In this document: positions 20,707-39,493 of the stretch, piece after piece | How positions within the stretch are numbered: position 1 is the first letter of the stretch | Layout of the letters: every line of letters starts with the position of its first letter | From: an uncultured Chthonomonadaceae bacterium | Lineage (GTDB): Bacteria > Armatimonadota > Chthonomonadetes > Chthonomonadales > CAJBBX01 | Length of the DNA: 64,000 nt | NCBI GenBank assembly: GCA_964519955.1 | Contig: CAZFLM010000008.1 | Location: 4,732 to 68,731 of the forward strand | Direction: 5' to 3' | Translations under genes and position numbers: made by a program | Notes under the pieces: model-generated | Seen by the model: the letters and a program-made list of their open reading frames with translations, nothing else | Databases searched by the model: none | What the model was told of the DNA's origin: nothing

Positions 20707-20908
20707 GGGTGGGTCCCTCCGTGCCGGCGCGGCTGGGCGAGCGCGCGAGCGTGTGGCCAAGGCGTGTTCGTGGGCGCCGGGTTCATGCGGTGCAGTTCGT
20801 CGCGGCTGGCGGAGGCACCTGCCACGCGAAGCCGGCCGCGACCGTATGGTAGGCTGAGCACCGCTGACAAGCGGCCGATCACTCTCGCACCAGAGGAGCT
20901 ACCCGACG

Positions 20909-23122: not shown

Positions 23123-23738
23123 AGGTTCCTCCCTGGGCGTCTCCCCGGACGCCCTGTCATGGACGGCAGCCAGGCCGGCTTCGCTGCGACGGCGATCGGC
23201 ACCGTCCGTTGGTCCTCCGTCTTGATTGACGTGCCGATAGTGGGGCGCTCGGGTCCGTGCCGTCGGAACATCGGTTCCGACGTCCTGCAGATGGGCGTTC
23301 CCGATCGGCAATGACCGCGACGCGCGGGGGGACGCGCTCTTACCTATTGTCGGCGTCAGCCGCCGCCAACCGCACCCGGTGGGAGTGCGGTGCTTTGACG
23401 GCCTCGCAGCCCAGCAGGCCTGGCGGATGTGCGGGGGCGCGGTCGGCTGCCGTGGCGCGCTCGGTGCCTCAGCCGCCCGAGCGGCGGGCAGGGGCTAACG
23501 CCGCAGGCAACCTGGACCAACAATGCATGCAGTACTACCAGTGTCGATCCGCGCGGCGCTCGGCCTCGACGGACTTCCTCGGTTCGTGCAGGTCTTTGGG
23601 CGTCCGAGCGCGGATATACCCGCAACACCGTCGGGACGCGCACGCCGACTGGCTTGCGTCGCTGCAGCGTCCCCATGGGTGCGTCGGCATCACGTGGAAT
23701 CCTGCCTCCTCGCCGGCGGTCCATCGAAAAGGGAGTAC

Positions 23739-25040
23739 ATGGGCATGCTAGGAACGTCGATCAGAACGACTGCGGCCACGATCGTCGGAGGCGGCGCGTT
23801 GGTCTTGATGGCGGCGGCCGCGTGGGCTCAGACGCCCGCCAAGCCGGCGCCTGGCCTCACGATCACCGGCGAAGCTCGGTTCCGCTACGAGAACCGGCAG
23901 AACGCCGCCTTCTCAGAGGCGCAGGACAACAATCCGAAGGACGAGTTGGCTCGGCTGCGCGTCGGCTTCAACTACCAGTTCGAGAGTGGCCCGCGCATCT
24001 ACGTCCAGCCCCAGTTCAACTGGCAGCACAACGCGTGCGTCGCCAAGCCGAAGGGCACGGACTGGGAGGGCGACGTCTTCAACGCCTACGTCGAGTTCGG
24101 CAACAAGGCAGCGAAGTGGCGCGTCGGGCGGCAGGAACTCACGTACGGCGAGGGACGCCTGCAGGCCGCCTCGAACTGGAACAACTCCGGACGGAGCTAC
24201 GACGCGGCGAAGGTGACCTACACCGATGCCACTACGAAGACGGACCTCTTCGTGGGCAAAGTCGGCCATGTAGGCCAGAAGTACCAGCACCCGCTGTTCG
24301 CCGGCGCCTACTCCACCATCACCCCCCGCAAGGACCTGAGCTACGACGCGTACCTGCTGTTCAAGTCGCTGGATGTGAACGCGACCACCCAACAGGAGAT
24401 CTACACGATCGGCAGCCGGCCGAAGTACAAGTGGCGCCAGGTGGACGCCTACGGAGAAGCGGCGTACCAGTTTGGCCAGTACGGTGACCGCACGGTGAGC
24501 GCCTACGCGTACATGGCGAATGTGGGCTACACCTTCAAGGGCTCGTCGGCACTCCGCGTGGCAGCCGAATACGACTTCGCCAGTGGCGGCAACCCGACGT
24601 CCGGTACCTATAACACGTTCGATCAGTTGTTCCTGACGAGTCACAACATCGTCGACAGCATGATCGGCATGTACGACGGCGTCGGCTGGCGCAACATGCG
24701 GGCCTGGCGTCTGAACGCCAACTTCAAGCCTGCGAAGAAGTGGACGATCGCGGTCGACGGATACCACTTCATGCTCGACAACGCCACGGACTACTGGTAC
24801 ACCAAGGGCGGCGGCACGATGACGGGCGCGGACGGTGCCGGCATTCGCGACGCCACCGGCGCATCGGGCCGAGACCTGGGCAAGGAACTCGACCTGAGCG
24901 TCTCCTACGAGGTGCGCAAGGGCTTCGTCGTCGGTGGGCAGGTATCTCGCTTCTTCCCGGGCCCGTTCGTCCGCAGCGCCAACAAGGGCTTCGCCGACAA
25001 CGGCACCTGGTTCTGCTTCCAGACGGAGTACAAGTGGTAG
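23739..25040 (+). CDS. Outer-membrane beta-barrel, alginate-export (AlgE-like) family
   Basis: AAAAGGGAG RBS. MGMLGTSIRTTAATIVGGGALVLMAAAAWA is a signal peptide. LTITGEARFRYENR is an N-terminal motif of this family. Alternating beta-strand pattern, and the protein ends ...FQTEYKW. Confidence 0.6.
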   Translation: MGMLGTSIRTTAATIVGGGALVLMAAAAWAQTPAKPAPGLTITGEARFRYENRQNAAFSEAQDNNPKDELARLRVGFNYQFESGPRIYVQPQFNWQHNACVAKPKGTDWEGDVFNAYVEFGNKAAKWRVGRQELTYGEGRLQAASNWNNSGRSYDAAKVTYTDATTKTDLFVGKVGHVGQKYQHPLFAGAYSTITPRKDLSYDAYLLFKSLDVNATTQQEIYTIGSRPKYKWRQVDAYGEAAYQFGQYGDRTVSAYAYMANVGYTFKGSSALRVAAEYDFASGGNPTSGTYNTFDQLFLTSHNIVDSMIGMYDGVGWRNMRAWRLNANFKPAKKWTIAVDGYHFMLDNATDYWYTKGGGTMTGADGAGIRDATGASGRDLGKELDLSVSYEVRKGFVVGGQVSRFFPGPFVRSANKGFADNGTWFCFQTEYKW

Positions 25041-25183: not shown

Positions 25184-26059
25184 TCACGCCGCCGTGGGCG
25201 CCGCCGCTGGTTCGGGCGGCCGGTTGTCCTGGTGCAGTTGGTTGCGGCCGGCCCGCTTGGCCGAGTAGAGCGACCGGTCGGCGTCTCGCAGCATGTCCTC
25301 GATCGTCCCGGTCGGCTTCTCGTACGTCACCGCGCCGACGCTGAAGGTGACCGGCCAGCCGTGCCGCCGCATCTCGCCCAGCAGGCGCTCTCGCACGCGC
25401 TCGATGCCGCACCGGCTCGGCGCCTCGGCGGTCTCCGGAAGCACCAGGGCGAACTCGTCGCCGCCCAGCCGCGCCACGATGTCGGTCGACCGCGTCTCGG
25501 TCGCCAGCGTCTGCCCAATTGTGCGCAAGCACTGGTCGCCCACGCTGTGGCCGAGCGTGTCATTGAGGTCCTTGAAGTGGTCGCAGTCGATCACCGCGAC
25601 GGTGAAGGGACGTCCGTAGCGTGCGCACCGGGCCAACTCGCGCCGTGCGATCTCGTAGAAGCCCGCGACGTTGGCGATGCCAGTCAGGTGATCGATGCGC
25701 GCGGCAAGCGTCTCCGCGGCGAGCTTGTCGCGCAAAGAGACGAGCGTCGCGACGCAGAACCCGAAGAAGACGGTGGTCGCGGCGGCGTTCCACACCTCGA
25801 TGTGCAGGCGCTCTCCGGGCAGCCCTGCCGCGACGTCGGTCAGCAGATTGGCGGCGATGCAGGCGGAGGCAGTCAGCATACCGGGACCCACCCCCATGCG
25901 CCACGCGACGAGGCTGATGGGAAGCAGGTAGAAGGGGCCGAGTTGGGCTTCGTAGCCGGAGAGGAAGTCCGTGTAGCCAATGGCGACGACGATCAGCGCG
26001 GCGAAGAGGACAGCCGTGCTCCGGCGGCAGTTCGTGAGGGTGTCCAGTAAGTGAGCCAT
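25184..26059 (-). CDS. Membrane-anchored diguanylate cyclase (GGDEF)
   Basis: ATG at 26059 (MAHLLDTLT...). 3-4 TM helices. IDHLTGIANVAGFYE...VIDCDHFKDLNDTLGHSVGD...RSTDIVARLGGDEFALVL has both the GGDEF motif and an RxxD I-site. Confidence 0.9.
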   Translation of the reverse strand: MAHLLDTLTNCRRSTAVLFAALIVVAIGYTDFLSGYEAQLGPFYLLPISLVAWRMGVGPGMLTASACIAANLLTDVAAGLPGERLHIEVWNAAATTVFFGFCVATLVSLRDKLAAETLAARIDHLTGIANVAGFYEIARRELARCARYGRPFTVAVIDCDHFKDLNDTLGHSVGDQCLRTIGQTLATETRSTDIVARLGGDEFALVLPETAEAPSRCGIERVRERLLGEMRRHGWPVTFSVGAVTYEKPTGTIEDMLRDADRSLYSAKRAGRNQLHQDNRPPEPAAAPTAA

Positions 26060-26169
26060 CGCACCATCCAACCGGTACCATTGTCGGTTCGTTCGGTGCG
26101 TACCTGTACCACCCACTGCGCGTTCCAGTTGGTACGGTCCACGTCGGGGGCCAAACGCCCTGATAGCCT

Positions 26170-26973
26170 CTACGTGCCCGGGCGGTTGGATTGTGCCTGC
26201 TGCTCTTCGGCGGGCCGCAGCAGGTGCTCCGTTTCGGCGGCAGGTGCGCCGGCCGCCGGGCGAAGCAGCGTCTCGGCAACCGGTGCTGCGGCAGGGCGCA
26301 GCAGCACGTGGCGGGTGCCGGCCTCCTCGGCCAGTTCGGCGAGTTCGTCGCGCACCTCCGCCGCGGTTGAGGCCAGCTCCGGGTCGGTCCGCGAGCGCGC
26401 AAGCGCCTCGATCATCGGCAGGGCGCGGGTGTCTTGCGCGATGGCGATGGCGCGGAGGGTTGCGAGAACCAGCCGCCGGTGAGCGGCGCTGTCGCGGGGG
26501 CGTGCCCGCTCGATGACCTCGAGGAGCGCGGCGCGCGCGGACCGGCTCAGGAGGCCGACTTCGGTGGAGCTGAACTCCATGAACGCGCTTGCCAGCCGGC
26601 CATCGGCGGAGCGCAGCACATCGAGGTCGTACTCGCCCGGGCTCGCGGCGGAGGCCGCGTCGGCCCATGCCGTCTCAACCCGGATCGCCTCGCGTACCAG
26701 GCGCGAGGCGCGCCAGCCGCAGACCAACTGGCGGGCCGCGAGGGCAGCCATACCCGCCGCCCAACAGATCGCCATCGCCGTTTGCTCACCGCGAGCGAGG
26801 TGCCACCCCTGGCTGGCCGCGAGCGCACACACCATGCCGAGCACGCCCATGACGCAGGCGAACCCAACCAGCACATGGCCGCCGAGGAACGTGCGCCTCA
26901 GGCGGCGCAGAAGCGCGTCTATACGAGCCGCGCACTCATCGTCCTGCTTGTCCAGGTCCGCGCTGCCGCACAT
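26170..26973 (-). CDS. LLRP-tail paralog 5
   Basis: ATG at 26973. Two TM helices. HEAT-like TLRAIAIAQDTRALPMIEALAR. Tail HVLLRPAAAPVAETLLRPAAGAPAAETEHLLRPA. Confidence 0.75.
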   Translation of the reverse strand: MCGSADLDKQDDECAARIDALLRRLRRTFLGGHVLVGFACVMGVLGMVCALAASQGWHLARGEQTAMAICWAAGMAALAARQLVCGWRASRLVREAIRVETAWADAASAASPGEYDLDVLRSADGRLASAFMEFSSTEVGLLSRSARAALLEVIERARPRDSAAHRRLVLATLRAIAIAQDTRALPMIEALARSRTDPELASTAAEVRDELAELAEEAGTRHVLLRPAAAPVAETLLRPAAGAPAAETEHLLRPAEEQQAQSNRPGT

Positions 26974-27790
26974 GCTGTTCGGCCTCCACTCCCGATGGGT
27001 TTGACGGCCGCAGCAGGTGCTCCGTTTCGGCGGCAGGTGCGCCGGCCGCCGGGCGAAGCAGCGTCTCGGCAACCGGTGCTGCGGCAGGGCGCAGCAGCAC
27101 GTGGCGGGTGCCGTGCTGGTCGGCGAACTGGCCCATCACCCCTGCGATCCCCTGCGCTGCTTCGCGCACCTCAGGATGCTGCGCCGCCGCCCCGACGTGC
27201 TCGATGGCGGGTAGGCTGGCCAGGTTTCCCAGGTAGAACAGTGTCTCGACCACGGCGATCGCGAACTGCGGATCGTCGGCATCGGTGAGGCGCGAAGCCG
27301 CCCCCGTCAGCAATGGCCCAAGGTGGCCGGTCGCGCATGCCGGTGGCCCCGCAAGCTGATTGCGCGCGAACAGCCCGCGCAGGAGCCGGGCGACCGTCTG
27401 CTGTGCCGCACGCCGCTCGCGCTGCGCCTCCTCACCCAACTCGGCTGTCGGCCCGTGCGTGCAGAAGGGGCCGGCCGCCCGCTCGACTGCGCCCAGGCAC
27501 CGCATGACCCGCAGCCCCGCAGCCCAATCCGATAGGAGCGACCAGGTCGGCGCCACGATCAGGGCCGCCAGGCCGGCATACAGGACAGCCGCGGCCGGGC
27601 TGCGGCCGTGGACCAGGAGCTGCAGAACGAGAGCCAGACCCACCAGCCCCGCGCCTGTCCATCGGATCCGGTCCGCGAGCCTCTGTGCTCGCCGCGCCCG
27701 CGCTGCCGCCGCCAGAGCGCTGTGGGCCGAGCGCTCGACGCGAGCCAGGCCGTTGCTCTCCCCACATCCTGTCGGCTGCGCGCCGTGCAA
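26936..27790 (-). CDS. LLRP-tail paralog 6
   Basis: TTG at 27790 preceded by AAGGGGG. Two TM helices. VETLFYLGNLASLPAIEHVGAA. Tail HVLLRPAAAPVAETLLRPAAGAPAAETEHLLRPS. Overlaps the paralog 5 start by 38 nt. Confidence 0.7.
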   Translation of the reverse strand: MHGAQPTGCGESNGLARVERSAHSALAAAARARRAQRLADRIRWTGAGLVGLALVLQLLVHGRSPAAAVLYAGLAALIVAPTWSLLSDWAAGLRVMRCLGAVERAAGPFCTHGPTAELGEEAQRERRAAQQTVARLLRGLFARNQLAGPPACATGHLGPLLTGAASRLTDADDPQFAIAVVETLFYLGNLASLPAIEHVGAAAQHPEVREAAQGIAGVMGQFADQHGTRHVLLRPAAAPVAETLLRPAAGAPAAETEHLLRPSNPSGVEAEQHVRQRGPGQAGR

Positions 27791-27862
27791 GTCGGTTGGC
27801 CCCCTTTCGACGTGAGGAACGATCGCTGCAAGTGGTGCGATTGCATCCTCCGCTTTGCCCCC

Positions 27863-29035
27863 TCAGCCCTGCCGCAGGGGCAGCGCCAATCGGAACACCG
27901 TGCCGGCCTCCGGCGAGGTGCTGAAGCTCACCGACCCCTTCAGAACACGCTCGGCGAGCAGCTTCATGGCGAAGGTGCCGAACCCGCGGCCCGCGCCCGG
28001 CTTGGTGCTGAAGTGGCGCTGGAACACCCGCAGCGCGATGGCGTCCGGGATCGCGGCGGCGTTCCACACGGAGAAGGCTGTGCCGCCGTCCTCCTCGACC
28101 CACAGCCGGACCTCGCCGCCTGCCTCCGTCGCCTCGAACGCGTTCGTCAGCATGTTCGTGAGCACCCGGCGCAGCGCGGAACGGTCGGTATGGACCCGCG
28201 CGCCGGCCGGCGCCGCCGTCAGCGCCAGGCGCTTGCCCGCGGCCGAGGGGTGCTGGGCCACCAGTGCCTGCAGCTCGCCGATGATGCCGTCGATCGGTAT
28301 GCCCTCGATGGCCGGCCTGTACTCGACATCCGCGCTGCCCAGGATCGCCCGCTGCAGCGCGATCTCGTCGGCGAGGCGCCCCGACAGCATGCGCGCCCGC
28401 TCAAGCAGCGCTTCGCGCTCATCGTCCGTCGAGCCCGGCACCAGATCGGAGCAGCCCTGCAGCGCCGTCGCGACGTTGGCGATGTCGTGCAGGAAGATGC
28501 GCTCCAGGGCTGCCCGCCGCTCCGGCGCCGTCACGTCCTGCAGCAGCAGCACCGTGAGACGGCGGCCCTCCAGCTCGACCGGCGTCGCCAGCACCCTCAG
28601 GCAGATCTCCACCGGCTGGCCCTCTCGCGTGACGGTCGCGACGCACTGCCGCTCGCACGGGGCGCCTGCCTGCTGGCTGCTGACGATGGCGATGGCCGCT
28701 CCGCACGAGGCGCAGTGCCGCGACGTGCCGCAGCGCCCCGGCATATCGTCGGCGTGGGCGCAGCCGATGGCCTCGCCGGGCCGAAGCCCGAGGACGCCCT
28801 CCGGGTCCTCGACTCCGAGGTCGGCGAGGAACGCGCGGTTCACAGCAAGGATCTGGCGGTGCTCGTTCAGGACGGCGACGACGCCGGCCGCGGACGCGAG
28901 GATGCCGTCGACAACGGGGTTATCGACGAGTGTCTCAACCTGACGGCGCACCACGTCGGCTGTGGCGCGCTCGGGGCGGGCGAAGTAGGTGTCTATCGGT
29001 CGCTCCTTGTGTTCGTGCGCGTGCTGCTGGCGCAC
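27863..29035 (-). CDS. Cytoplasmic PAS-type sensor histidine kinase
   Basis: NEHRQILAVNRAFLADLG is PAS-like. FLHDIANVATAL is the H-box. RVLTNMLTNAFEAT is the N-box. HFSTKPGAGRGFGTFAMK is the G-box. Confidence 0.88.
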   Translation of the reverse strand: MRQQHAHEHKERPIDTYFARPERATADVVRRQVETLVDNPVVDGILASAAGVVAVLNEHRQILAVNRAFLADLGVEDPEGVLGLRPGEAIGCAHADDMPGRCGTSRHCASCGAAIAIVSSQQAGAPCERQCVATVTREGQPVEICLRVLATPVELEGRRLTVLLLQDVTAPERRAALERIFLHDIANVATALQGCSDLVPGSTDDEREALLERARMLSGRLADEIALQRAILGSADVEYRPAIEGIPIDGIIGELQALVAQHPSAAGKRLALTAAPAGARVHTDRSALRRVLTNMLTNAFEATEAGGEVRLWVEEDGGTAFSVWNAAAIPDAIALRVFQRHFSTKPGAGRGFGTFAMKLLAERVLKGSVSFSTSPEAGTVFRLALPLRQG

Positions 29036-29281
29036 GGCGTTGGCTGGCTGCCAGGCAGTGCGCTGCTGCCGGGCGAGCCGTTCTGCGCCGGCCCTCTACT
29101 TCGCCGCCGGGCGCGGTGGTCCCTCCGCCGTGGAGGGGCTGTTTCGGACCCCCTGGGTGCGGTGCGCAGGTTCCATGTTGCAAACAGCGGGCGGACGTGG
29201 AATAGGGGCATACAGAGGCGTTCCCCCCGGACGCACATGGACGCTACCACCTGCCGCTGCAAGGACGCTACATTGAAGGGG

Positions 29282-31828
29282 ATGCCAGTCACAGCGCGCG
29301 CCTACGTGCTGCTGGTCTGTGCCGCCGGGGCTGCGTCAGCCCTCGGCGCCGTGATGCTGCAGGTGCCGAGGAGCGCCTACCACACGTGGGACCTGCCGGT
29401 CTTCGTGCTGCTGGCCGCCATCGCCGGCGGCAAGAAGATCGAGCTGGTTCGCCCGCGCGGATCGCACGATGGCGCCTCCATGTCGCTCGGGTACGCGGTC
29501 ACAGTTGCCGCCATGCTGCGCTTCGGGCCGGCCGCCGGCCTGCTGGTGGGCAGCATCACAGCGTTGTCCAGTTGCGTCTATCCGAAGCCCTATCCCGCCC
29601 ACCAGTTGGTCTTCAACGTCGCGCTTACCGCCGTCGAGTCGTGGCTCGCCGGCCTGGCCTACCTGCAGCTCAACGGATGGAGCCTGGCTCTGCGCCCCTA
29701 CGAGTCGGCCGGTCCCATCGTCGCCTCCTGCCTGGTCAGCTACCTGGTCAACACCGGCGGCGTGTCGATCGTCATCGCTCTGTGCTCCGGCGAGCGGATC
29801 GGGACGCTCTGGCGCACTACCTTCCTGTGGACCGCGCCGAGTTACTTCGCCGGCGCTAGCATCAGCGCCCTGGGCCTGTTCCTGTTCGGCGAGCGCACGG
29901 GCGTCATCCTGCTCTTCGGCGCGCCGGTCGCCTTCCTCACCTACTACTCGTACGCGGTGTACACCGCCCGCGCCGAGGAGCACCGTAAGCACATCGAGGA
30001 GCTGCAGGTCAGCCAGGCCCAGCTCGCCGATCTCTACCTGGCCACCATCAAGAGCCTGGCGCTTGCCATCGACGCCAAGGATAAGTACACGCACCAGCAC
30101 ATCGTGCGCGTTCAGCGGTACGCGGTTGCCGTGGCGGTCCATCTGGGCCTCAGCGAGAGCGACATCGAGGGCGTCAAGACCGGCGCGCTGCTGCACGACA
30201 TCGGCAAGCTGGGAGTCGCCGAGTACGTGCTGCTGAAGCCGGGGCGGCTGGCCGAGGACGAGTTCAAGCACATCCAGCGCCACCCGGAGATCGGCGCTGC
30301 CATCCTGGACCCGGTGAGCTTCCCGTGGCCGGTGGTGCCGGCCGTCAAGCACCACCACGAGAAGTGGGATGGCACCGGCTACCCGGACGGGCTTCGCGGT
30401 GAGCAGATCCCGCTGCCGGCCCGCATCCTCGCCGTGGCGGATGTCTACGACGCGCTTACTTCGACCCGCTCGTACCGGACGGCCTGGCCGCACGAGAAGG
30501 CTGTCGATGTGATCCGCGACGGCTCGGGCAAACACTTCGACCCGACAGTCGCCGCCGCGTTCCTGGCGGTCATCGGCGGCGTGATCTCCCAGATGGCGGA
30601 GGAGGGGATCGGCCCGCTGGCGCCCCATCACGTCGAGCCGAACCTGGGCACGATGAAGGCTGACCTCGCCGCGCGAGACATCCAGCGCGCCGCCGCCGAC
30701 CTGTGGGCTCTATACGAGGTCGCGCAGACGCTGTCGTCGAGCCTTGCGCTCGCGGAGACCGTGGACATCCTCTCTCGCAAGCTGGAGGCGATGTTCCCGG
30801 GGTCGGCATGCGCGTTCCTCTTGATGGACAAGACCCGCAGGCAGCTCGACGTCCGGGCCGCCTCCGGCGTGAACCGCGAGTTCCTGACGGGGGCACATAC
30901 GCTCGGCCCGACAAGCCGGTCGATGCGCGCCGCCGTCGAGCGCGAGACCTACAACGGCGGCTTCGACCAGGACGACCTGCTGCTCACCTCCGTTCCGACT
31001 ACGGAATGGGTGCCCATCGAGTCGTCGCTGATCGTGCCAGTCGTCCATCGTGGCGAGGTGCTGGGCTCCGTCAACTTCTACCACCCGCAGGCCGGCGCGT
31101 TCGGCGCCCACGAGCAGCAACTGGCGGAGATGGTGGCCCAGCGGGCGGCCTGCGCGCTCTACAACAGCATCGCGTTCGAGCGCGCGCGCGGCCACGCCGA
31201 GACCGACCCGCTCACCGGGCTCTACAACATCCGCTATCTGACCGAGCAGGTCGACCGCCACTGCTCCCAGACGCGGCTGCGCTGCCCGGTATGTGGTCTG
31301 CTGGACGAGGACGGATGCGGCCACGACGCCCCGCGCACGGTGGGGCGCGAGGACGATCGCTTCGCGCTGCTGTGCCTCGACCTCGACAGCTTCAAGCCGA
31401 TCAATGACAACTTCGGCCATCAGCAGGGCGACGACGTGCTCCGGCGCGTGGCGAGGGTTCTCCGCGAAACGGTGCGCCACACCGACGTCGTGGCGCGCTA
31501 CGGCGGCGACGAGTTCCTCGTGATGCTGCGCTCCGCCACGCGCGAGGAAGCCGAGGCGATGGCGCACCGGCTGGCCCTCGCCATCGAGCAGCAGGACATG
31601 GGCGTCGACCATCCGGCCTACGGCGCCCTGTCCATCGGCGCGAGCGTGGGCTACGCCTGCTTCCCGGCCGACGGCACCGACTGCGCCACCCTCATCGCCT
31701 CGGCCGACGCGTGCATGTACCGGGTCAAGGCGGAGCGCAAGCTCGACGCCATGGCCACCCGCGGCCGCAAGCACTGGCCCGCCCACGCGCCCGGCACCCC
31801 GCCCTGGGAGCACAAGGAAGCCGCGTAG
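29282..31828 (+). CDS. Multidomain c-di-GMP protein: membrane domain, HD-GYP, GAF, GGDEF
   Basis: HQHIVRVQRYA...LLHDIGKLGV...HHEKWDGTGYPDGL is the HD-GYP signature. A GAF-like middle follows. LTGLYNIRYL...LDLDSFKPINDNFGHQQGD...RHTDVVARYGGDEFLVML has GGDEF with RxxD. Start at 29282 (AAGGGG RBS), alternative ATG at 29237. Confidence 0.88.
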   Translation: MPVTARAYVLLVCAAGAASALGAVMLQVPRSAYHTWDLPVFVLLAAIAGGKKIELVRPRGSHDGASMSLGYAVTVAAMLRFGPAAGLLVGSITALSSCVYPKPYPAHQLVFNVALTAVESWLAGLAYLQLNGWSLALRPYESAGPIVASCLVSYLVNTGGVSIVIALCSGERIGTLWRTTFLWTAPSYFAGASISALGLFLFGERTGVILLFGAPVAFLTYYSYAVYTARAEEHRKHIEELQVSQAQLADLYLATIKSLALAIDAKDKYTHQHIVRVQRYAVAVAVHLGLSESDIEGVKTGALLHDIGKLGVAEYVLLKPGRLAEDEFKHIQRHPEIGAAILDPVSFPWPVVPAVKHHHEKWDGTGYPDGLRGEQIPLPARILAVADVYDALTSTRSYRTAWPHEKAVDVIRDGSGKHFDPTVAAAFLAVIGGVISQMAEEGIGPLAPHHVEPNLGTMKADLAARDIQRAAADLWALYEVAQTLSSSLALAETVDILSRKLEAMFPGSACAFLLMDKTRRQLDVRAASGVNREFLTGAHTLGPTSRSMRAAVERETYNGGFDQDDLLLTSVPTTEWVPIESSLIVPVVHRGEVLGSVNFYHPQAGAFGAHEQQLAEMVAQRAACALYNSIAFERARGHAETDPLTGLYNIRYLTEQVDRHCSQTRLRCPVCGLLDEDGCGHDAPRTVGREDDRFALLCLDLDSFKPINDNFGHQQGDDVLRRVARVLRETVRHTDVVARYGGDEFLVMLRSATREEAEAMAHRLALAIEQQDMGVDHPAYGALSIGASVGYACFPADGTDCATLIASADACMYRVKAERKLDAMATRGRKHWPAHAPGTPPWEHKEAA

Positions 31829-31843
31829 CCGCCGCACGCATCC

Positions 31844-31914
31844 CTGGAGGGCGTGCGTCCGTGCCCGCCGGCGTCGTTCGCGCGCTACTGGAGGGCGGGC
31901 CTCCGTGCCCGCCG
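31844..31914. repeat. Two copies (44-nt period) of CTGGAGGGCGnnCnTCCGTGCCCGCCG, related to the REP-like element
   Basis: Copies at 31844-31870 and 31888-31914. They share the core TCCGTGCCCG with 8032-8057 and 63629-63654. Immediately 3' of the stop at 31828. Confidence 0.6.
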
Positions 31915-32000
31915 CGCCCTCCCCGCCACACAATCCCGCACTTCCAACAGTGACCGCCCGTTCGCTTGGCGCCGATCCTTGAGGTGCCGGATGGTTCCGC

Positions 32001-32090
32001 CCCCGATAAAGGCAAACCTGTCGCAAGGCAGGGGCGCAAAGCCGACGGGCCTCCCGCCGCACTGGGAGGAAGCCGGGCTGCCGAAAGGGC
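32001..32090 (+). promoter_or_regulatory. c-di-GMP-I (GEMM-I) riboswitch aptamer, copy 1
   Basis: AAAGGCAAACC-UGUC-GCAA-GGCA-GGGGCGCAAAGCC...GGGAGGAAGCCGGGCUGCCGAAAGG. Compare the V. cholerae Vc2 pattern GGCAAACC-stem-GAAA-stem-GGGACGCAAAGCC...AGCGGGGUUACCGAUGG. Confidence 0.75.
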
Positions 32091-32194
32091 GCAGCCGATG
32101 CAGGGATGCTCTCCTCATCGTCTCGCGGGGTCGGGACCCCAAGAGGGGTCGCACGTTCCGCCGCGTTGCGGCGTCGCGATCGAAGACCCTTCGC

Positions 32195-32306
32195 AATCGA
32201 CAAAGGCAAACCGGCCGAGAGGCCGGGACGCAAAGCCATGGACCCTAGCTCGCCGCGCCTGCCGCACTCCGGCGCCGCGGGACGGGCAGCCAGGTTGCCG
32301 AAAGCG
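32195..32306 (+). promoter_or_regulatory. c-di-GMP-I (GEMM-I) riboswitch aptamer, copy 2
   Basis: CAAAGGCAAACC-GGCC-GAGA-GGCC-GGGACGCAAAGCC...GGCAGCCAGGUUGCCGAAAGC. It ends ~25 nt before the GAGGGAGAG RBS and the ATG at 32331. Confidence 0.8.
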
Positions 32307-32330
32307 TACGATTACGAGGGAGAGTGCTCA

Positions 32331-34094
32331 ATGAGTATGAACGGTGGCCGTTTCGCCGCCGGTTGCGCGCGTGACATGCGTCGGGCCTGCCTGGCCGCGC
32401 TGGCGCTCGCGTCCTTACTCGCCTGGCCTGCTGCCTCACAGGCGAGCGATAGCGCCGCACGTGGCCCCGCCGCGTTCGGCAAATGCGATACGTTGCTCCG
32501 CGTCCAGATGGAGCGCAACTCCGCCAAGGGATGGACGTCCGCCGTCCTGTGGATCGACGGCCAGCTCACCGCGGAGCGCCGTGCCAAGTTCGGCGCGCTG
32601 CACGTCGATGTCTACCGCAACCTGCCCGTCATCTCGTCGGTGGCCGCCCGCATTCCGAACCGGAACCTGCGTGCGGTGGCCGACCTATCGTTTGTCAAGC
32701 GCCTGTCGTCCGACGCGACTGTCCTCAAGAACGACGAGTACACCGTGGAGGCCACCGGCGCAGACGTCGCCTTCTCCAAGAACCACCTGACTGGCAAGGG
32801 CATCACGGTCGCCGTGCTCGACAGCGGCCTCCGCGAGTCCTACGATCTGACCGAGTCGCTGTCGCGGCGCCGCGTGCTCGCCAGGGTCTCGTTCGTGCCA
32901 ACCGACCGCAGCCCGGACGACCAGTGCGGGCACGGCACGCACGTTGCCGGTATCATCGGCGGCAACGGCAAGTCGTCCACCGGCCCCTGGTTCACCCGCA
33001 CGTTCTACGGCGTTGCCCGCCGCGCCAGCCTCGTCAGCGTTCGCGTGCTGGACGAGTACGGTCAGGGCAACGTCAGTGCGGTTCTGGCCGGCATCCAGTG
33101 GTGCATCGACAACCGCTCCCGCTATGGAATCCGCGTGCTGAACCTGTCGCTCGGCCATCCGGTCGGCGAGAGCTTCACCACCGACCCGCTCTGCCGGGCC
33201 GCCGAGGCCGCCTGGAAGTCCGGCATCGTCGTGGTGTGTGCCGCGGGCAACATGGGGCGCTCGATGTATGAGCAGGACCCGGCCCTGGACAATGAGGGCT
33301 ATGGGACTGCCTACGGCTCCATCCAGTCGCCGGGCAACGACCCGTACGTCATCACCGTCGGCGCGATGAAGCGCATGGACGGGGTCCGGGCCAATGACCG
33401 GATCGCTACCTACTCCAGCCGCGGCCCGAGCCGTCTCGACTTCGTCGTGAAGCCGGACATCGTGGCCCCCGGCAACCGCGTCATCTCGCTGGACGTGGAC
33501 AACGGCTACCTGGAGCGGACTTGCGCGTCCACCAACATGGTGCCGAAGTCCTACTACATGGTCCGCGCCAGCAACGACGCGTCCGATAGCTACTTCTATC
33601 TCTCCGGCACGTCCATGGCCGCGCCGGTGGTGTCTGGGGCCGCCGCCCTGATGCTCGAGGCGGATCCCACGCTCTCGCCGGACACGGTCAAGGCGCGGCT
33701 GATGATCGCAGCCGACAAGTGGCTCGCGCCGAACGGACTGGCCGATGTTTGCACCTATGGTGCGGGCTATCTCAACATCCCGGCCGCCCTGGCCTGCAGG
33801 TACAGGGCCACCCAGGCTTCGCTCAGCCCGATGCTGGTGCGAGACGATGCCGGCAGCGTGTTCCTGTGCGCCTACGGCGACGTCACCGGGACGCGGGCCA
33901 TCTGGGGGGGAGGAAACACCTCAGTAGTCGACGCGACCCGGGCGATCTGGGGTCCCGCGACTGCCGAGAACACGCCGGCCTTGACGAACAGCTACCAGCT
34001 CTACGGGCTCAACGTGTGGTTCGATGGTTGGGTCTGGGGCGAGGGGTATACAGCCGCCGATCTGTCGATGACGACGATCATCGGGGAGGGGTAA
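32331..34094 (+). CDS. Secreted subtilisin-like serine protease (peptidase S8)
   Basis: Signal peptide ...ALASLLAWPAASQA. Catalytic triad motifs VAVLDSGL (Asp), HGTHVAGIIGG (His) and GTSMAAPVVSGAAALM (Ser). Confidence 0.92.
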   Translation: MSMNGGRFAAGCARDMRRACLAALALASLLAWPAASQASDSAARGPAAFGKCDTLLRVQMERNSAKGWTSAVLWIDGQLTAERRAKFGALHVDVYRNLPVISSVAARIPNRNLRAVADLSFVKRLSSDATVLKNDEYTVEATGADVAFSKNHLTGKGITVAVLDSGLRESYDLTESLSRRRVLARVSFVPTDRSPDDQCGHGTHVAGIIGGNGKSSTGPWFTRTFYGVARRASLVSVRVLDEYGQGNVSAVLAGIQWCIDNRSRYGIRVLNLSLGHPVGESFTTDPLCRAAEAAWKSGIVVVCAAGNMGRSMYEQDPALDNEGYGTAYGSIQSPGNDPYVITVGAMKRMDGVRANDRIATYSSRGPSRLDFVVKPDIVAPGNRVISLDVDNGYLERTCASTNMVPKSYYMVRASNDASDSYFYLSGTSMAAPVVSGAAALMLEADPTLSPDTVKARLMIAADKWLAPNGLADVCTYGAGYLNIPAALACRYRATQASLSPMLVRDDAGSVFLCAYGDVTGTRAIWGGGNTSVVDATRAIWGPATAENTPALTNSYQLYGLNVWFDGWVWGEGYTAADLSMTTIIGEG

Positions 34095-34310: not shown

Positions 34311-34730
34311 CTACGTGATGCGGCGGCCCGTCGTACTGCAGATGAGGTCGCCGTGCTTCACGCCTCGCGCAGCGATCAGCTCGTCCGCCACGTGCCGGAC
34401 CTCGGGCGCCGCGCCCCGCACGATCACCACCTCCAGGCAGTTCTGCTCGTCGAGGTGGATGTGCGTGGTGCAGATGACTGCGTGGTGGTGGCTGTGCTGC
34501 ATCGCGTTCAGCGCCTGGCCGAGCCCGTGCTCGTCGTGCTCATACACGATCGTCACGGTGCCCACGACCTCCGCGTTCGGATCTTCCCACTCGCCGCGTA
34601 CCGCCTCGCGCCGCACCAGGTCGCGAATCGCCTCGGAGCGGTACTCGTATCCGCGCTCCTTCACCAGGGCGTCGAGCTTGTCGAGCAACTCCTGCTCCAT
34701 CGAGACGCCGAAGCGCACCAGGTCGCTCAC
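34311..34730 (-). CDS. nikR: Nickel-responsive regulator NikR (RHH + ACT-like metal-binding domain)
   Basis: GGGGAGG then GTG at 34730. VSDLVRFGVSMEQELLDKLDALV...YRSEAIRDLVR is a ribbon-helix-helix. HHHAVICTTHIHLDEQNCLEVVIVRG carries the His/Cys metal site. Confidence 0.85.
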   Translation of the reverse strand: MSDLVRFGVSMEQELLDKLDALVKERGYEYRSEAIRDLVRREAVRGEWEDPNAEVVGTVTIVYEHDEHGLGQALNAMQHSHHHAVICTTHIHLDEQNCLEVVIVRGAAPEVRHVADELIAARGVKHGDLICSTTGRRIT

Positions 34731-34781
34731 CGATAGGCCTCCCCTCGCCGAAACCGTGCCGCGCACCTTCGGCCGGCGGCG

Positions 34782-35540
34782 CTATTGTACTCGATCGGCT
34801 GCTGCCGCGCGAAGATCGGCGAGCACCAGGCTGAGGGGCTGCTCCAGCCCGTGCGCATCGAGCAGGGCGCCGTCGCGCAGCACCTCGCCAGCCGGCCCCT
34901 CCGCCACCAGCCTGCCGCCATCGAGTACCGCGACGCGTGAGCACAGCTCGGCGGCCATCTCCAGGTCGTGCGTGGCGACGATCAGCGTCTGAGGGAGGCC
35001 GGAGAGCAGGCCGACGAGTGCGCGGCGCGAGCGGGGATCCAGCCCGGCGGTGGGCTCGTCGAGCGCCAGCACCTCGGCATCCATCGCCAGCACGGTCGCG
35101 ATCGCCGCGCGCTTCCGCTGGCCCATGCTGAGGCGGTGAGGGCTGTCCGGCGCGCGCTCGTCCATGCCGACCTGCGCGAGGGCCTGCATCGCGCGTTCGC
35201 GAGCTTCTGTCCACGAGTAGCCCAGGTTGCGCGGGCCGAACGCGACGTCCTCCAGGAGGGTGGGCAGGAAGAGCTGGTCGTCCGGGTCCTGGAACACCAG
35301 GCCGACCTTGCGGCGGATGTCGCGCAGCGTCGCCGGGCCGACTGCTGCGCCGCCGATCTCGACGCGCCCCGCTCCGCGCAGCAGGCCGTTGAGGTGCAGC
35401 AGCAGCGTCGACTTGCCCGCGCCGTTCGGCCCGACCAGCGCCAGCCGCTCGCCGGAGCCGATCGTGAGCGACACGCCGTCGAGTGCGCGCCTGCCCGTCG
35501 GGTAGTCGTAGGTGAGCCCCGCGAGGGTGACGGACGTCAT
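34782..35540 (-). CDS. ECF/cobalt-nickel type ABC transporter ATPase (CbiO/EcfA-like)
   Basis: LVGPNGAGKSTLLLHLNGLL is the Walker A. VGLVFQDPDDQLF. LSMGQRKRAAIATVLA is the signature motif. LALDEPTAGLD is the Walker B. Confidence 0.88.
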   Translation of the reverse strand: MTSVTLAGLTYDYPTGRRALDGVSLTIGSGERLALVGPNGAGKSTLLLHLNGLLRGAGRVEIGGAAVGPATLRDIRRKVGLVFQDPDDQLFLPTLLEDVAFGPRNLGYSWTEARERAMQALAQVGMDERAPDSPHRLSMGQRKRAAIATVLAMDAEVLALDEPTAGLDPRSRRALVGLLSGLPQTLIVATHDLEMAAELCSRVAVLDGGRLVAEGPAGEVLRDGALLDAHGLEQPLSLVLADLRAAAADRVQ

Positions 35541-36232
35541 CGGTGTGCGGCTCCGAGCGCGACGAGCGCCACAGACACCGCGCTCGCGAGCAGCGCATCG
35601 CGCCTGCGCAGTGGCGGGAGCGGAGCGGCGGGGAAGTGCCCGTCGAAGCCGCGCGCCAGCATCGCGTCGGCGACGCGCTCGGAGCGGTCCACGGCGCGCT
35701 CAAGCAGGCAGGCGGAGAGCTTCCCGAGCGCCACGGCCTGCGCCCAGGGCTGCCTGCCGAGCGCTCTGCACCGGAATGCCCGCCCCATCCGCCCGCCCTC
35801 GTCCGCGAACACGCTCAGGTACCGGGCTACCAGCAGCAGCATCTGCGTCGCGAGCGAGGGCACGCGAAACCATGCCAACGCCGCGACGATCTGTGTGTAG
35901 GGCGTGGATGCCGACAAGGCGACGCAGATGCCCGTCGAGAGCGCGATCCGCACGCAGAAGGTCGCGGCCTGCGCTGCCGGTGCGCCGAGCGCCACGCCAA
36001 CTGCACCGAACACGGCGCACCACGCCGTGGGCACGGCCGCACGCCGCAGTGTCCGCGCCGGGACCCGCGCCAGCCACAGCGCGGCGGCCAGCAGCGCGGC
36101 CTCCGCGGCGAACCGCGGCCAGTCCGCCACGGGGGTGGCCGCGACGCAGACCACAGCCGCGGCAGCGACGAGTAGCCTGGTGCGTGGTTCGGTCTGGGGC
36201 GACATCGATCGGTCCGGCCTACTCTGCGGCAT
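35537..36232 (-). CDS. ECF transporter T component (CbiQ/EcfT-like)
   Basis: Polytopic, with a C-terminal ...ERAVDRSERVADAMLARGF motif typical of CbiQ/EcfT. ATGA-type overlap with the ATPase gene. The start is uncertain (ATG at 36232 or 36205). Confidence 0.75.
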   Translation of the reverse strand: MPQSRPDRSMSPQTEPRTRLLVAAAAVVCVAATPVADWPRFAAEAALLAAALWLARVPARTLRRAAVPTAWCAVFGAVGVALGAPAAQAATFCVRIALSTGICVALSASTPYTQIVAALAWFRVPSLATQMLLLVARYLSVFADEGGRMGRAFRCRALGRQPWAQAVALGKLSACLLERAVDRSERVADAMLARGFDGHFPAAPLPPLRRRDALLASAVSVALVALGAAHR

Positions 36233-36755
36233 CGTGGCCCGCGCGGCGGCGAGAGCGGATGGCAGTTGCGGCTGCCGGAGCGATCGCCAACTGGAGCAGG
36301 ACGCCCGGAAGGCCGGACGCGATCGATGCGAGGCCGGACGCCTGAGAGGGGAGCCCCAGGACGGCGCCCAGCCAAGAGTAGATCCCCCACGTAACGGCGC
36401 AGCGGCCAGCGATGGCGGCCGGCGCCGCCGCCCATGCCGGCACGCGCCACGACGTGAGGAGCGAGGCGATGGCCGCGAGGGCCGCCAACTCGGCCGTCAT
36501 CATGACCGCGTAGGGGAAGGGCGGCATGCCGGTGAGCAGCATCGATGCCCAGGGCGTGACGATGGCTGCGGTGAGGGCCACGCGCGGGCGGAGCAGCAGC
36601 GCGGCGATCAGCACCGGGAGGTGCATGGGCAGGAACACCTTGCCGAGCCCCACCGCGTGGAAGAGCATCGGTACCACGATGCCCGCCGCGCAGAGGCACG
36701 CGCCGAGGGCCAGTTCGCGCGCGGCCCGGTCGGCGCTACCCACCTGTGCCCTCAT
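36219..36755 (-). CDS. ECF transporter S (substrate-capture) component, not CbiM/NikM type
   Basis: 178 aa with 5-6 TM helices. VFLPMHLPVLIAALLLRP resembles the PF12822-type S-component motif. It lacks the N-terminal MHIxEG motif of CbiM/NikM. Confidence 0.6.
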   Translation of the reverse strand: MRAQVGSADRAARELALGACLCAAGIVVPMLFHAVGLGKVFLPMHLPVLIAALLLRPRVALTAAIVTPWASMLLTGMPPFPYAVMMTAELAALAAIASLLTSWRVPAWAAAPAAIAGRCAVTWGIYSWLGAVLGLPSQASGLASIASGLPGVLLQLAIAPAAATAIRSRRRAGHDAAE

Positions 36756-37974: not shown

Positions 37975-37999
37975 TAACACGAAGTGAGACTTCGTGTTA
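37975..37999. promoter_or_regulatory. Perfect 11-3-11 palindrome, candidate operator
   Basis: TAACACGAAGT-GAG-ACTTCGTGTTA lies in the divergent region between starts 37946 (-) and 38132 (+). It is AT-richer than its surroundings. Confidence 0.45.
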
Positions 38000-38131
38000 C
38001 GACTCAGCGTAGCACGCGTCGGGCGGCCTGGTCAATGGGGCAGCGTGGTTTGCGGACGAAGGACTTCGCCCTGGCCCGCTGAACATAGGCATCGGTGCCC
38101 GGGATGCGGGCCGGCAGCAGGGGAGCGCGAC

Positions 38132-39493
38132 ATGGCGGAGCAGCGGGGCGACGTGATGGTGGGCAGTGGCGAGGCGGCGGGCAGCGAGAAGCCGGCGTGG
38201 CTGCGCGAGCGGCTCGAGTGGTTCATGGACCAGCGCTTCGGCGTGTTCCTCCACTGGGGGCCGTACTGCCAGTGGGACTGCTGCGAGTCCTGGCCGCTCG
38301 TCCCCGAGGACACCTGGGCGCGCAATCCCAAATCGCGGTGCTGGAGCGAGCGTGGGATGGACCTGGAGCGCTTCCAGCGGGACTACTGGGCGCTCAACCG
38401 CACGTTCGACCCGGTGGACTTCGACCCGGACGCGTGGGCGGAGGTGGCTCAGGCGGCGGGCATGCGCTACGTCACGTTCACCACGAAGCACCACGACGGG
38501 TTCTGCATGTTCGACACGCGCACCACCGACTACCGCGTCACCGCGCCGGACTGCCCGTTCCACGCGCACCCGCGCGCCAACATCGCCCGCGAGGTGTTCG
38601 ATGCGTTCCGCCGCCAGGGGCTCGCGGTGAGCTGCTACTTCTCGAAGTCCGACTGGCACTCGCCGCACTACTGGTCGCCGCGCTGGCCGGCGCTCACCCG
38701 CAACCCGAACTACGACACCGCGGAGTACTCCGACATCTGGGAGGGCTTCGTGCACTTCGTCCACGCGCAGGTCGAGGAGCTGATGACGGGCTACGGCCCC
38801 ATCGACGTGCTGTGGCTCGACGGCGGCCAGGTGCGGGCGGACAACAAGCAGGACATCCGCATGGCCGAGATGGCCGCTATGGCCCGCAGCCACCAGCCCG
38901 GCCTCATCATGGCGGACCGCACCGTGGGCGGCGACTACGAGGACTTCATCACGCCGGAGCACACCATCCCCGATGCGCCGCTCGACACGCCGTGGGAGTC
39001 CTGCCTCACGCTCGGGACCTCGTGGAAGTACGTCGAGGGCGAGGTCTACCGCCCCGCGCGCGAGGTCATCCGCATGCTTGCCGAGATCGCGTCGAAGGGT
39101 GGCAACCTGCTGCTCGGCTTCGGTCCGGACCCGCTGGGCCGCTTCCCAGCCGGCGCGGTGGAGCGGCTGCGCGAGGTCGGAGCGTGGATGGACGTGAACG
39201 GCGAGGCGGTCTACGGCACGCGGCCCGTTGCGCCCTACGGCTCCGGCGACGTGCGCTTCACCAGCAAGGGCCGCACGACCTACGCCATCGTGCTCGACGC
39301 GCCGGAGCCCGACCGCCAGGCTCGCCGCCTGCGGATCGAGGGCCTGCGCCCGGCAGAAGGAGCGCCCGTGCACCTGCTGGGCGTCGACGAGCCGCTGGCG
39401 TGGCAGGCGGAGGGGCAGGGGTTGTCCGTGGCGCTGCCGGAGCGCGCCATCGCCGAGCCCATCGCCTGGGTGGTCCGCTTCGAGCGGGCATGA
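38132..39493 (+). CDS. Alpha-L-fucosidase (GH29)
   Basis: RFGVFLHWGPY...AGMRYVTFTTKHHDGFCMFDT...DVLWLDGG are typical GH29 motifs. The start is uncertain (ATG at 38132 or the downstream Met). Confidence 0.85.
   Translation: MAEQRGDVMVGSGEAAGSEKPAWLRERLEWFMDQRFGVFLHWGPYCQWDCCESWPLVPEDTWARNPKSRCWSERGMDLERFQRDYWALNRTFDPVDFDPDAWAEVAQAAGMRYVTFTTKHHDGFCMFDTRTTDYRVTAPDCPFHAHPRANIAREVFDAFRRQGLAVSCYFSKSDWHSPHYWSPRWPALTRNPNYDTAEYSDIWEGFVHFVHAQVEELMTGYGPIDVLWLDGGQVRADNKQDIRMAEMAAMARSHQPGLIMADRTVGGDYEDFITPEHTIPDAPLDTPWESCLTLGTSWKYVEGEVYRPAREVIRMLAEIASKGGNLLLGFGPDPLGRFPAGAVERLREVGAWMDVNGEAVYGTRPVAPYGSGDVRFTSKGRTTYAIVLDAPEPDRQARRLRIEGLRPAEGAPVHLLGVDEPLAWQAEGQGLSVALPERAIAEPIAWVVRFERA

Follow-up and report, generated by a model that had tools for sequence, protein, structure and literature searches.

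The 64-kb stretch of DNA analysed here (the window), from an uncultured Chthonomonadaceae bacterium of the phylum Armatimonadota, carries two aptamers of the GEMM-I class, also known as the cyclic di-GMP-I (c-di-GMP-I) class, in tandem in the 5' untranslated region (5' UTR) of a gene for a subtilisin-family protease. We propose that the gene-proximal element, aptamer 2, is the core regulatory device of this leader and works as a translational ON switch, in which a single RNA strand would either complete the ligand-binding fold or bury the Shine-Dalgarno (SD) sequence of the protease gene. We assign this reading, whose direction is taken from the known working of the riboswitch class, a probability of about 0.7. 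The distal element, aptamer 1, has an alternative pairing of its own, and its contribution to the output is considered separately.

The entire window was scanned with cmscan against the 4227 families of Rfam 15 at the gathering-score cut-off. Exactly two matches rose above it, both on the + strand and both of the GEMM-I class, and a permissive local Rfam scan returned nothing beyond these two. The aptamers and the gene that they precede are as follows:

32002-32086, + strand: aptamer 1 (distal), GEMM-I/c-di-GMP-I class, 66.1 bits, E 2.1e-13, model positions 1-80 of 80
32196-32303, + strand: aptamer 2 (proximal), GEMM-I/c-di-GMP-I class, 64.9 bits, E 4.6e-13, model positions 1-80 of 80
32316-32324, + strand: Shine-Dalgarno region GAGGGAGAG, 7-15 nt before ATG 32331, with SD core GAGGGAG at 32316-32322
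32331-34094, + strand: regulated gene, S8 (subtilisin-family) peptidase of 587 amino acids, Pfam PF00082 (Peptidase_S8), E 1.6e-51

Each match covers the full model at or above the curated gathering score of its clan CL00126 family (59 for RF03167). The class fold, in which a short P1 closes two hairpins, P2 and the GNRA-capped P1a/P1b, is backed by covariation, with compensatory changes in 12 of the 17 consensus pairs among 37 related aptamers (RNAalifold). The tetraloop is GCAA in aptamer 1 and GAGA in aptamer 2, and the P1 core consists of G32005:C32082 and C32004:G32083 in the former and of G32199:C32299 and C32198:G32300 in the latter. By score and by covariation, then, both elements are genuine GEMM-I aptamers, a known kind of regulator.

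An earlier note, made by eye from the sequence, had proposed this tandem and had named scores below the gathering threshold at both elements as its refuter; both scores lie above it. The hallmark strings that it quoted are all found at their places (AAAGGCAAACC twice, together with GGGGCGCAAAGCC, GGGACGCAAAGCC, GCCGGGCUGCCGAAAG and GCCAGGUUGCCGAAAG), and the spacing that it gave as about 195 nt is 194 nt from start to start. Its subtilisin-like S8 protease is borne out by the Pfam match and by the closest solved structure, the subtilisin-like protease 3afg (E 1.8e-42). The distance of about 25 nt from aptamer 2 to the ribosome-binding site needs correction: the pair lies upstream of the protease gene on the same strand, and the 3' end of aptamer 2 is 12 nt away from the SD core and 27 nt away from the ATG. 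By eye, the N-terminus of the protease resembles a signal peptide (…LALASLLAWPAASQA).

The switching strand of aptamer 2

Four nucleotides at the 5' end of aptamer 2, together with the flank that precedes them, have two possible partners downstream:

32188-32199, + strand: switching strand CCUUCGCAAUCG, made up of the 5' flank of aptamer 2 and the four initial nucleotides of this aptamer; its two partners are mutually exclusive
32304-32306, + strand: 3' strand of the P1 extension, GCG, pairing with C32194, G32193 and C32192; UGCGA in relatives
32309-32320, + strand: alternative partner CGAUU-A-CGAGGG, pairing with 32188-32199 and enclosing aptamer 2; its 3' half is the SD

In State 1, the canonical P1 forms and is prolonged by an extension, which in the relatives reads UCGCA:UGCGA; the window has CGC:GCG instead, between 32192-32194 and 32304-32306. 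In State 2, CCUUCG-C-AAUCG pairs with CGAUU-A-CGAGGG over 12 pairs, so that the SD is buried while the 3' strand of P1 and the ligand-contacting nucleotide C92 (numbered as in the Vibrio cholerae aptamer Vc2) are looped out.

We relied on comparative analysis because folding of the whole leader was uninformative. The comparison set consists of 17 Armatimonadota protease loci (designated by L numbers) scanned with Rfam, and counts include the window where stated. In an alignment of 19 proximal-type units, the alignment cells that could pair in each state were counted and compared with controls in which the partner was slid along the alignment. State 2 pairs in 94.3% of cells, where shifts of the partner by 1-3 columns give 36-56%, and State 1 in 90.6%, where the slid controls give 13-66%, with three and two compensatory pairs respectively. 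The switching strand is near-invariant across the 19 relatives and the sequences on either side of the proximal aptamer vary hardly more than the aptamer does, with AUCCUUCGCA leading into AUCGAC on the 5' side and CCGAAC, UGCGA and CGAUUACGAGGGAA…AUG on the 3' side; an equivalent of the SD, GAGGG or AAGGAG, is likewise kept.

Where the strand does change, its partners change with it. For State 2, AAUCG:CGAUU becomes AAUUG:CAAUU in L165 and CCUUCG:CGAGGG becomes CCUUUG:UAAAGG in L081, several such changes passing by way of wobble pairs. In State 1, L170 has UCGCG:CGCGA in place of UCGCA:UGCGA, and the A:U pair of the extension is replaced by G:C in two sequences. One nucleotide, C3 (column 17), covaries with both partners: with G77 of P1 it forms CG in 9 sequences and UA in 6, and with the downstream G it forms CG in 12, UA in 4 and UG in 3. 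In this alignment, such double covariation is the signature of a switching strand. Relatives with a single aptamer retain exactly the proximal unit with the same flanks, which is why we regard this unit as the core device. In L166 and L082, whose flanks differ, the SD can by eye be paired with the 5' flank or locally.

Thermodynamic folding favours State 2. The minimum-free-energy structure pairs the SD with the 5' flank in 13 of the 13 sub-leaders folded and forms the full two-part helix in 12, and of 15 full leaders, 11 show the same pairing at a probability of at least 0.67. For the window, the ensemble gives p = 0.82-0.93 for pairing of the SD with 32188-32192. To release the SD takes 2.5-10.8 kcal/mol (median 7.5), which is below the energy gained on binding a ligand with nanomolar or tighter affinity, as Vc2 does. 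When P1 of aptamer 2 is enforced in the window, the mean unpaired probability of the SD rises to 0.35 from a baseline of 0.12-0.28, the range covering two runs with slightly different SD windows and sub-sequence ends.

A scan of 31700-32500 showed just two terminator-like sites, both of them on the - strand; the + strand has no intrinsic terminator there, and transcription attenuation through an intrinsic terminator was dropped on this ground. Also set aside was a hairpin, CGAAG-ACC-CUUCG (32181-32193), considered as an anti-anti-SD element: it is present in the window and L002 only and is not conserved. This hairpin could sequester part of the aptamer 2 switching strand.

The mechanism that we propose is thus one of translation initiation. 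Without ligand, 32188-32199 would pair with 32309-32320, breaking P1 and burying the SD; with c-di-GMP bound, the same strand would be held in P1 and its extension by 32299-32306, the SD would be freed and ribosomes could initiate. Ligand binding in this class needs P1, and c-di-GMP should for this reason select State 1 and expose the SD.

Several points weigh against this proposal. The whole GC-rich leader folds no better than its shuffles (z = -1.16), and its unconstrained minimum-free-energy structure fails to reproduce the aptamer folds. The P1 extension of the window has only 3 bp (GCG) and lies one column off the consensus UGCGA. The comparative sample is small, at 19 related sequences, and the 2/500 of its shuffle control is not a probability. 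No paper on c-di-GMP riboswitches in Armatimonadota, or on this arrangement, was found in the incomplete library that was searched. The nearest functional parallel points the other way: the zmpI (PPEP-1) protease gene of Clostridioides difficile reportedly has a c-di-GMP-I riboswitch as well, a single aptamer acting on transcription as an OFF switch before the gene of a secreted M34 metalloprotease, whereas the window has a tandem, a predicted ON switch and an S8 serine protease; by analogy with this repressed gene, an OFF switch could be expected for a secreted protease. Finally, when both aptamers are forced to fold in the window, the SD (32316-32322) pairs with 32111-32119 in the linker (p = 0.9-0.99) and its unpaired probability falls to 0.03-0.04. 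The net output at high ligand is uncertain, since in this model the CU-rich linker re-captures the SD once both aptamers are folded.

The distal aptamer and the output of the tandem

Aptamer 1 is flanked by elements that can pair with one another across it:

31989-32001, + strand: 5' leader segment GGAUGGUUCCGCC, homologous to the conserved (A)GAUGGUCYCCGCC of relatives; outer 5' pairing strand
32087-32091, + strand: GGGCG, 3' strand of the aptamer 1 P1 extension, pairing with 31998-32003 (read from the sequence)
32108-32126, + strand: pyrimidine-rich, anti-SD-like linker tract GCUCUCCUCAUCGUCUCGC (the CU tract)
32122-32140, + strand: G-rich linker segment CUCGCGGGGUCGGGACCCC, complementary to the 5' leader and to the 5' strand of aptamer 1 P1 ('anti-P1')

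The first of these elements also bears on where the transcript begins. In seven relatives (L001, L163, L165, L167, L169, L170 and L172), a conserved -10-like box, GGCAUAAU, stands about 8 nt before a conserved AGAUGGUC and some 20-30 nt upstream of the distal aptamer; box and motif together probably mark the promoter and the 5' end of the transcript. By homology with these relatives, the window transcript probably starts near 31989, which gives a leader of about 340 nt; the 500 nt of the earlier note agree with the intergenic distance (502 nt) and probably overstate the leader itself. The window counterpart of the -10 box, GATCCT at 31974-31979, is weak, and a scan of 31700-32500 gave no good sigma-70 promoter match on the + strand. 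A candidate sigma-54 promoter, picked by eye at TTGGCGCC, was dropped for its unsuitable spacing.

The P1 extension of the distal aptamer is GC-rich, and every long-linker relative has GGGC(G) immediately 3' of this aptamer. In all 11 leaders whose linker is at least 43 nt long, the linker further holds a CU tract (CUUCCUCCUC and similar), then (Y)UCGGG, then a segment ending in ACC, and these three elements are jointly complementary to the 5' leader and the 5' strand of P1 (GGUYCC…CCCGA…AGG). RNAduplex gives a leader:linker duplex of this one topology for 10 of the 11; against shuffled linkers, z lies between -1.2 and -4.3. In the window the duplex joins 31988-32007 to 32122-32141 at -26.0 kcal/mol, with a z of -1.3 that is non-significant alone, and the unconstrained minimum-free-energy structure of the window leader uses this pairing. 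The outer helix varies among leaders yet stays complementary, as CUCUG:CAGAG in L162, UGGUCCC:GGGACCA in L003 and GGUUUCUUCC:GGAGAAACC in L001.

By this conserved alternative pairing, aptamer 1 is a second two-state element, presumably gated by its ligand. No terminator, SD or start codon belongs to it alone. The linker holds an SD-like AAGGGA, and the idea of a leader peptide behind it was dropped, since by eye the leaders share no start codon there. Ligand bound to aptamer 1 would expose the linker, including the CU tract. As to what this achieves, it may reinforce or sharpen the ON response, as the tandem c-di-GMP-I precedent would suggest, an effect that we put forward tentatively and at somewhat less than even odds. 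Some other effect, such as Rho loading or RNA stability, or none at all, is rather unlikely. That aptamer 1 opposes the ON response by supplying a second anti-SD strand, with two thresholds as the result, is unlikely to much the same degree.

The conventional way in which a tandem could act is as two independent ON switches that together steepen the response to c-di-GMP. Among the tandem riboswitches known, those of the c-di-GMP-I class are the most frequent, numbering 347 doublets and 12 triplets, and the Bc3-5 triplet of Bacillus thuringiensis has a more digital response (PMC9481103). The window resembles such systems in carrying two aptamers of one class per leader, which should make the dose response sharper or more complex, and the binding-site nucleotides of its two aptamers are identical. 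The described tandems, however, are treated as independent riboswitches with their own platforms, usually terminators (PMC9481103), whereas here there are no terminators and only aptamer 2 directly contacts the SD. Moreover, only 22-24 nt separate the two aptamers in five leaders of the relatives (L165, L167, L170), too short a gap to accommodate a second classical expression platform, and we found no structural route from a bound aptamer 1 to higher expression. Two independent ON switches are a possible arrangement in which we place limited confidence.

Alternatively, the two aptamers could be opposed: aptamer 2 would act as an ON switch, and a ligand-bound aptamer 1 would free the CU tract of the linker (or, in the compact relatives, the 5'-terminal leader) to re-capture the SD. 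If so, the protease would be made only with aptamer 2 occupied and aptamer 1 empty. Such wiring is suggested by the fall in SD accessibility in the window model, to the value given above with both folds enforced from 0.35 with aptamer 2 alone; the linker likewise captures the SD in L162, L169 and L172, and the 5' leader does so in L165a, L170b and L170c. In most relatives the CU tract includes CCUCC, the anti-SD core; it extends further than aptamer 1 requires for its alternative pairing, and the complementarity of the tract runs past the SD in the window, in L162 (15 bp), in L169 (14 bp, z = -3.5) and in L001 (8 contiguous bp). Distal and proximal aptamers also form two distinct sequence subtypes, A at the position of Vc2 G20 (A20) occurring only among the proximal ones. 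On the other hand, in most leaders the CU tract is no more complementary to the SD than composition-matched shuffles are (z about 0 to -2), and a significant anti-SD role for the tract was not upheld on complementarity alone. Re-capture is absent in 6 of 15 leaders, no covariation has been demonstrated for the CU:SD pairing, long-range pairs in GC-rich RNA are poorly predictable, and the scheme needs different affinities of the two aptamers. We consider opposed wiring unlikely on balance, and the outcome that it would model, two aptamers with opposite outputs on one ribosome-binding site giving band-pass expression of the protease from a single second messenger, slightly more unlikely.

Aptamer 1 could instead govern elongation or RNA stability, the exposed C-rich tract at 32108-32126 loading Rho or the 5' end, once freed or buried, altering decay. 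The tract is C-rich, G-poor and single-stranded only with aptamer 1 folded, the alternative helix includes the presumed 5' terminus, and Rho-dependent control is known in other riboswitch classes; yet the transcription start is placed by homology rather than mapped, and the compact relatives lack the C-rich tract, which makes this route distinctly improbable. An OFF switch, in which c-di-GMP would repress the protease and the helix 32188-32199:32309-32320 would, for instance, serve as the ligand-bound P1, is more doubtful again. Secreted proteases are often made at low c-di-GMP, as the zmpI analogy illustrates, and the long helix is the thermodynamic ground state. That helix, however, loops out C92 and the 3' strand of P1 (32298-32300) or leaves them paired elsewhere, and with these displaced the binding pocket of the family cannot form; the covariation of the canonical P1 pair C3:G77 (CG 9, UA 6) further marks P1 as a selected structure.

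Ligand assignment and related aptamer classes

In Vc2, the ligand is contacted by G20, A47 and C92 (PMC4744006, PMC5888326), and a G at the first of these positions characterizes c-di-GMP aptamers, an A those for c-AMP-GMP (cGAMP) (PMC9481103). We transferred the Vc2 numbering through the model alignment, taking G20 as the last of the six junction nucleotides before a G-C pair, A47 as the first unpaired nucleotide past the closing G-C of the first hairpin, and C92 as the unpaired C before the 3' strand of P1. The contact positions on the + strand are:

Aptamer 1: G20 = G32011, A47 = A32038, C92 = C32081
Aptamer 2: G20 = G32205, A47 = A32232, C92 = C32298

A47 and C92 are present in 38 of the 38 aptamers tallied in the lineage and G20 in 34. 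Since both window aptamers carry the canonical G20, A47 and C92, their predicted ligand is c-di-GMP, not cGAMP; the earlier note had held that ligand specificity could not be decided by eye, and the nucleotides at these three positions do make the c-di-GMP pattern legible.

The automatic family label reads differently. Rfam clan competition assigns both window aptamers to RF03167 (c-di-GMP-I-GGC), masking two further matches of the same clan that exceed their own gathering scores at both sites. Compared with ordinary GEMM-I, the RF03167 consensus (ACGCGAAGCC) has a single conserved difference, the G in ACGCGAAgCc; both window aptamers, which read CGCAAAGCC, have an A at this place. 'GGC' presumably stands for G20/G47/C92, so that a G at the position of Vc2 A47 defines the variant, which agrees with the model consensus. 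In the relatives, the top family alternates between RF03167 and RF01051, the latter scoring up to 79.5 bits. The RF03167 label, on this comparison, mirrors overall lineage similarity and not the diagnostic nucleotide. That the aptamers belong to the GGC variant or to the c-AMP-GMP class (GEMM-Ib) and sense something other than c-di-GMP is most improbable: RF03167 does score best at both sites (66.1 and 64.9 bits against its gathering score), but its conserved G is replaced by A in the two window aptamers, as in all 38 of the lineage, position 20 is G where c-AMP-GMP aptamers have A, other clan members also pass their thresholds at both sites, and sister aptamers in relatives go to RF01051.

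Set beside the known classes, the window aptamers share with Vc2, the prototype of RF01051, the two-hairpin fold, the GNRA tetraloop, the short P1 and G20/A47/C92, and with RF01051 riboswitches a location in the 5' UTR of a gene connected with the physiology of c-di-GMP. They depart from them in lineage, in scoring best with RF03167 under clan competition, and in a predicted platform that is an SD-sequestering helix sharing its 5' strand with P1 rather than a terminator. With c-di-GMP-I-GGC they share the highest overall sequence similarity and lack what we take to be its defining G; with the c-AMP-GMP riboswitches of Geobacter and relatives they share the scaffold, and differ from these in having G20 where those have A20.

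In four relatives' proximal aptamers, the G20 position is occupied by A (ACAAAAGC or ACAAGAGC):

L003, positions 2218-2310
L163, positions 1383-1475
L163, positions 3512-3601
L169, positions 1902-2002

P1 is altered in three of these four, those of L003 and of both L163 leaders, with G2 facing C80, and the distal aptamers of tandem leaders always keep G20. A20 being a hallmark of c-AMP-GMP-type or promiscuous GEMM-I aptamers, the leaders that contain it may be heterotypic, two-ligand tandems; if opposed wiring were true, they would constitute an 'A AND NOT B' gate. For annotation, the lesson is that automatic Rfam labels would miscall the two window aptamers, and many of those in the relatives, as 'GGC', and that the label should be checked against the diagnostic nucleotide.

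Distribution, gene neighbourhood and significance

Homologues of the protease number in the thousands, with 5221 in the homologue search, and the closest (50-60% identity) are, where named, from Armatimonadota or Chthonomonadaceae. Aptamers occupy the same position before the gene in 22 protease leaders including the window. The tandem pair accounts for 16 of these: the window, L001, L002, L003, L082, L162, L163 (two genes), L165 (two), L167, L169, L170 (three) and L172. Six leaders have a single aptamer, of proximal type (L161, L166, L168, L081 and two in L171). The Rfam scan found no aptamer at three protease genes (L164, L005 and the second gene of L169), nor in 33 loci of remoter homologues (at most 50% identity), of which those named are mostly from Acidobacteriota. 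Some Armatimonadota have two or three S8 protease paralogues, adjacent or one gene apart (L170:3740-9176, L163:1239-3626, L165:1263-3607), each with its own tandem riboswitch leader, three in L170; a separate tandem leader for each paralogue points to repeated duplication of the entire leader-plus-gene unit.

The genes that precede the leader in the window are:

29282-31828, + strand: upstream gene, HD-GYP + GAF + GGDEF protein (Pfam HD_5, GAF, GGDEF)
27863-29035, - strand: histidine kinase (HATPase_c, weak PAS)
25184-26668, - strand: second diguanylate-cyclase-type gene (Pfam GGDEF, E 7.5e-40), GGDEF motif intact

The GGDEF and HD…GYP motifs of the gene at 29282-31828 are intact. The + strand open reading frame 27608-31828 (1406 codons) overlaps the histidine-kinase gene on the - strand and is over-extended, the HD-GYP/GAF/GGDEF gene proper probably starting at ATG 29282; this start is preceded by an AAGGGG SD and gives a product of 848 amino acids, similar to those of the relatives. 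The three c-di-GMP turnover genes that the earlier note placed nearby thus come down to two genes, which jointly hold three catalytic-type domains. For the window, as for 9 of the 12 relatives with known context, the gene immediately preceding that of the protease encodes an HD-GYP domain, usually as HD-GYP+GAF+GGDEF. Judged by this gene order, the protease with its aptamer-bearing leader and its upstream HD-GYP/GGDEF gene is a conserved c-di-GMP module in Armatimonadota.

Right after the HD-GYP/GGDEF stop codon, at 31829-31860, the window has a GC-rich hairpin (GCACGC…GCGUGC) with no U-run. On the 3' side of the protease, the - strand cluster at 34311-36755 comprises a NikR-type regulator (NikR_C + RHH), an ABC ATPase and a weak match to an ECF-transporter S-component; it is probably concerned with nickel or cobalt uptake and unrelated to the riboswitch. 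Also nearby are a GH123 glycoside hydrolase (17737-20760, -), and an alpha-L-fucosidase and an alginate-export-type outer-membrane protein (37994-39493, +, and 23523-25040, +), which suggest a polysaccharide-degrading lifestyle.

A c-di-GMP riboswitch before a protease gene is reportedly known already, from C. difficile. Tandem c-di-GMP-I aptamers are known as well (PMC9481103). What is new here is the membership of such a system in an unstudied phylum, the conserved S8-protease/HD-GYP module, the predicted register-shift platform that sequesters the SD, with covariation for both of its states, and a distal aptamer that would gate a linker rather than a terminator. The leader offers what is probably a natural example of a register-shift translational switch, in which one 12-nt strand covaries with two partners, and it indicates that tandem c-di-GMP-I aptamers need not be two serial terminator-type switches; if the outputs of its two aptamers are indeed opposed, it would also be a natural band-pass riboswitch. 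For Armatimonadota, a nearly uncultured phylum on whose c-di-GMP signalling we know of no published work, the subtilisin-family protease is a predicted gene under direct c-di-GMP control and a first regulatory handle. Its conserved link with HD-GYP/GGDEF genes therefore makes this protease a candidate output of the decision between sessile and motile life in the phylum.

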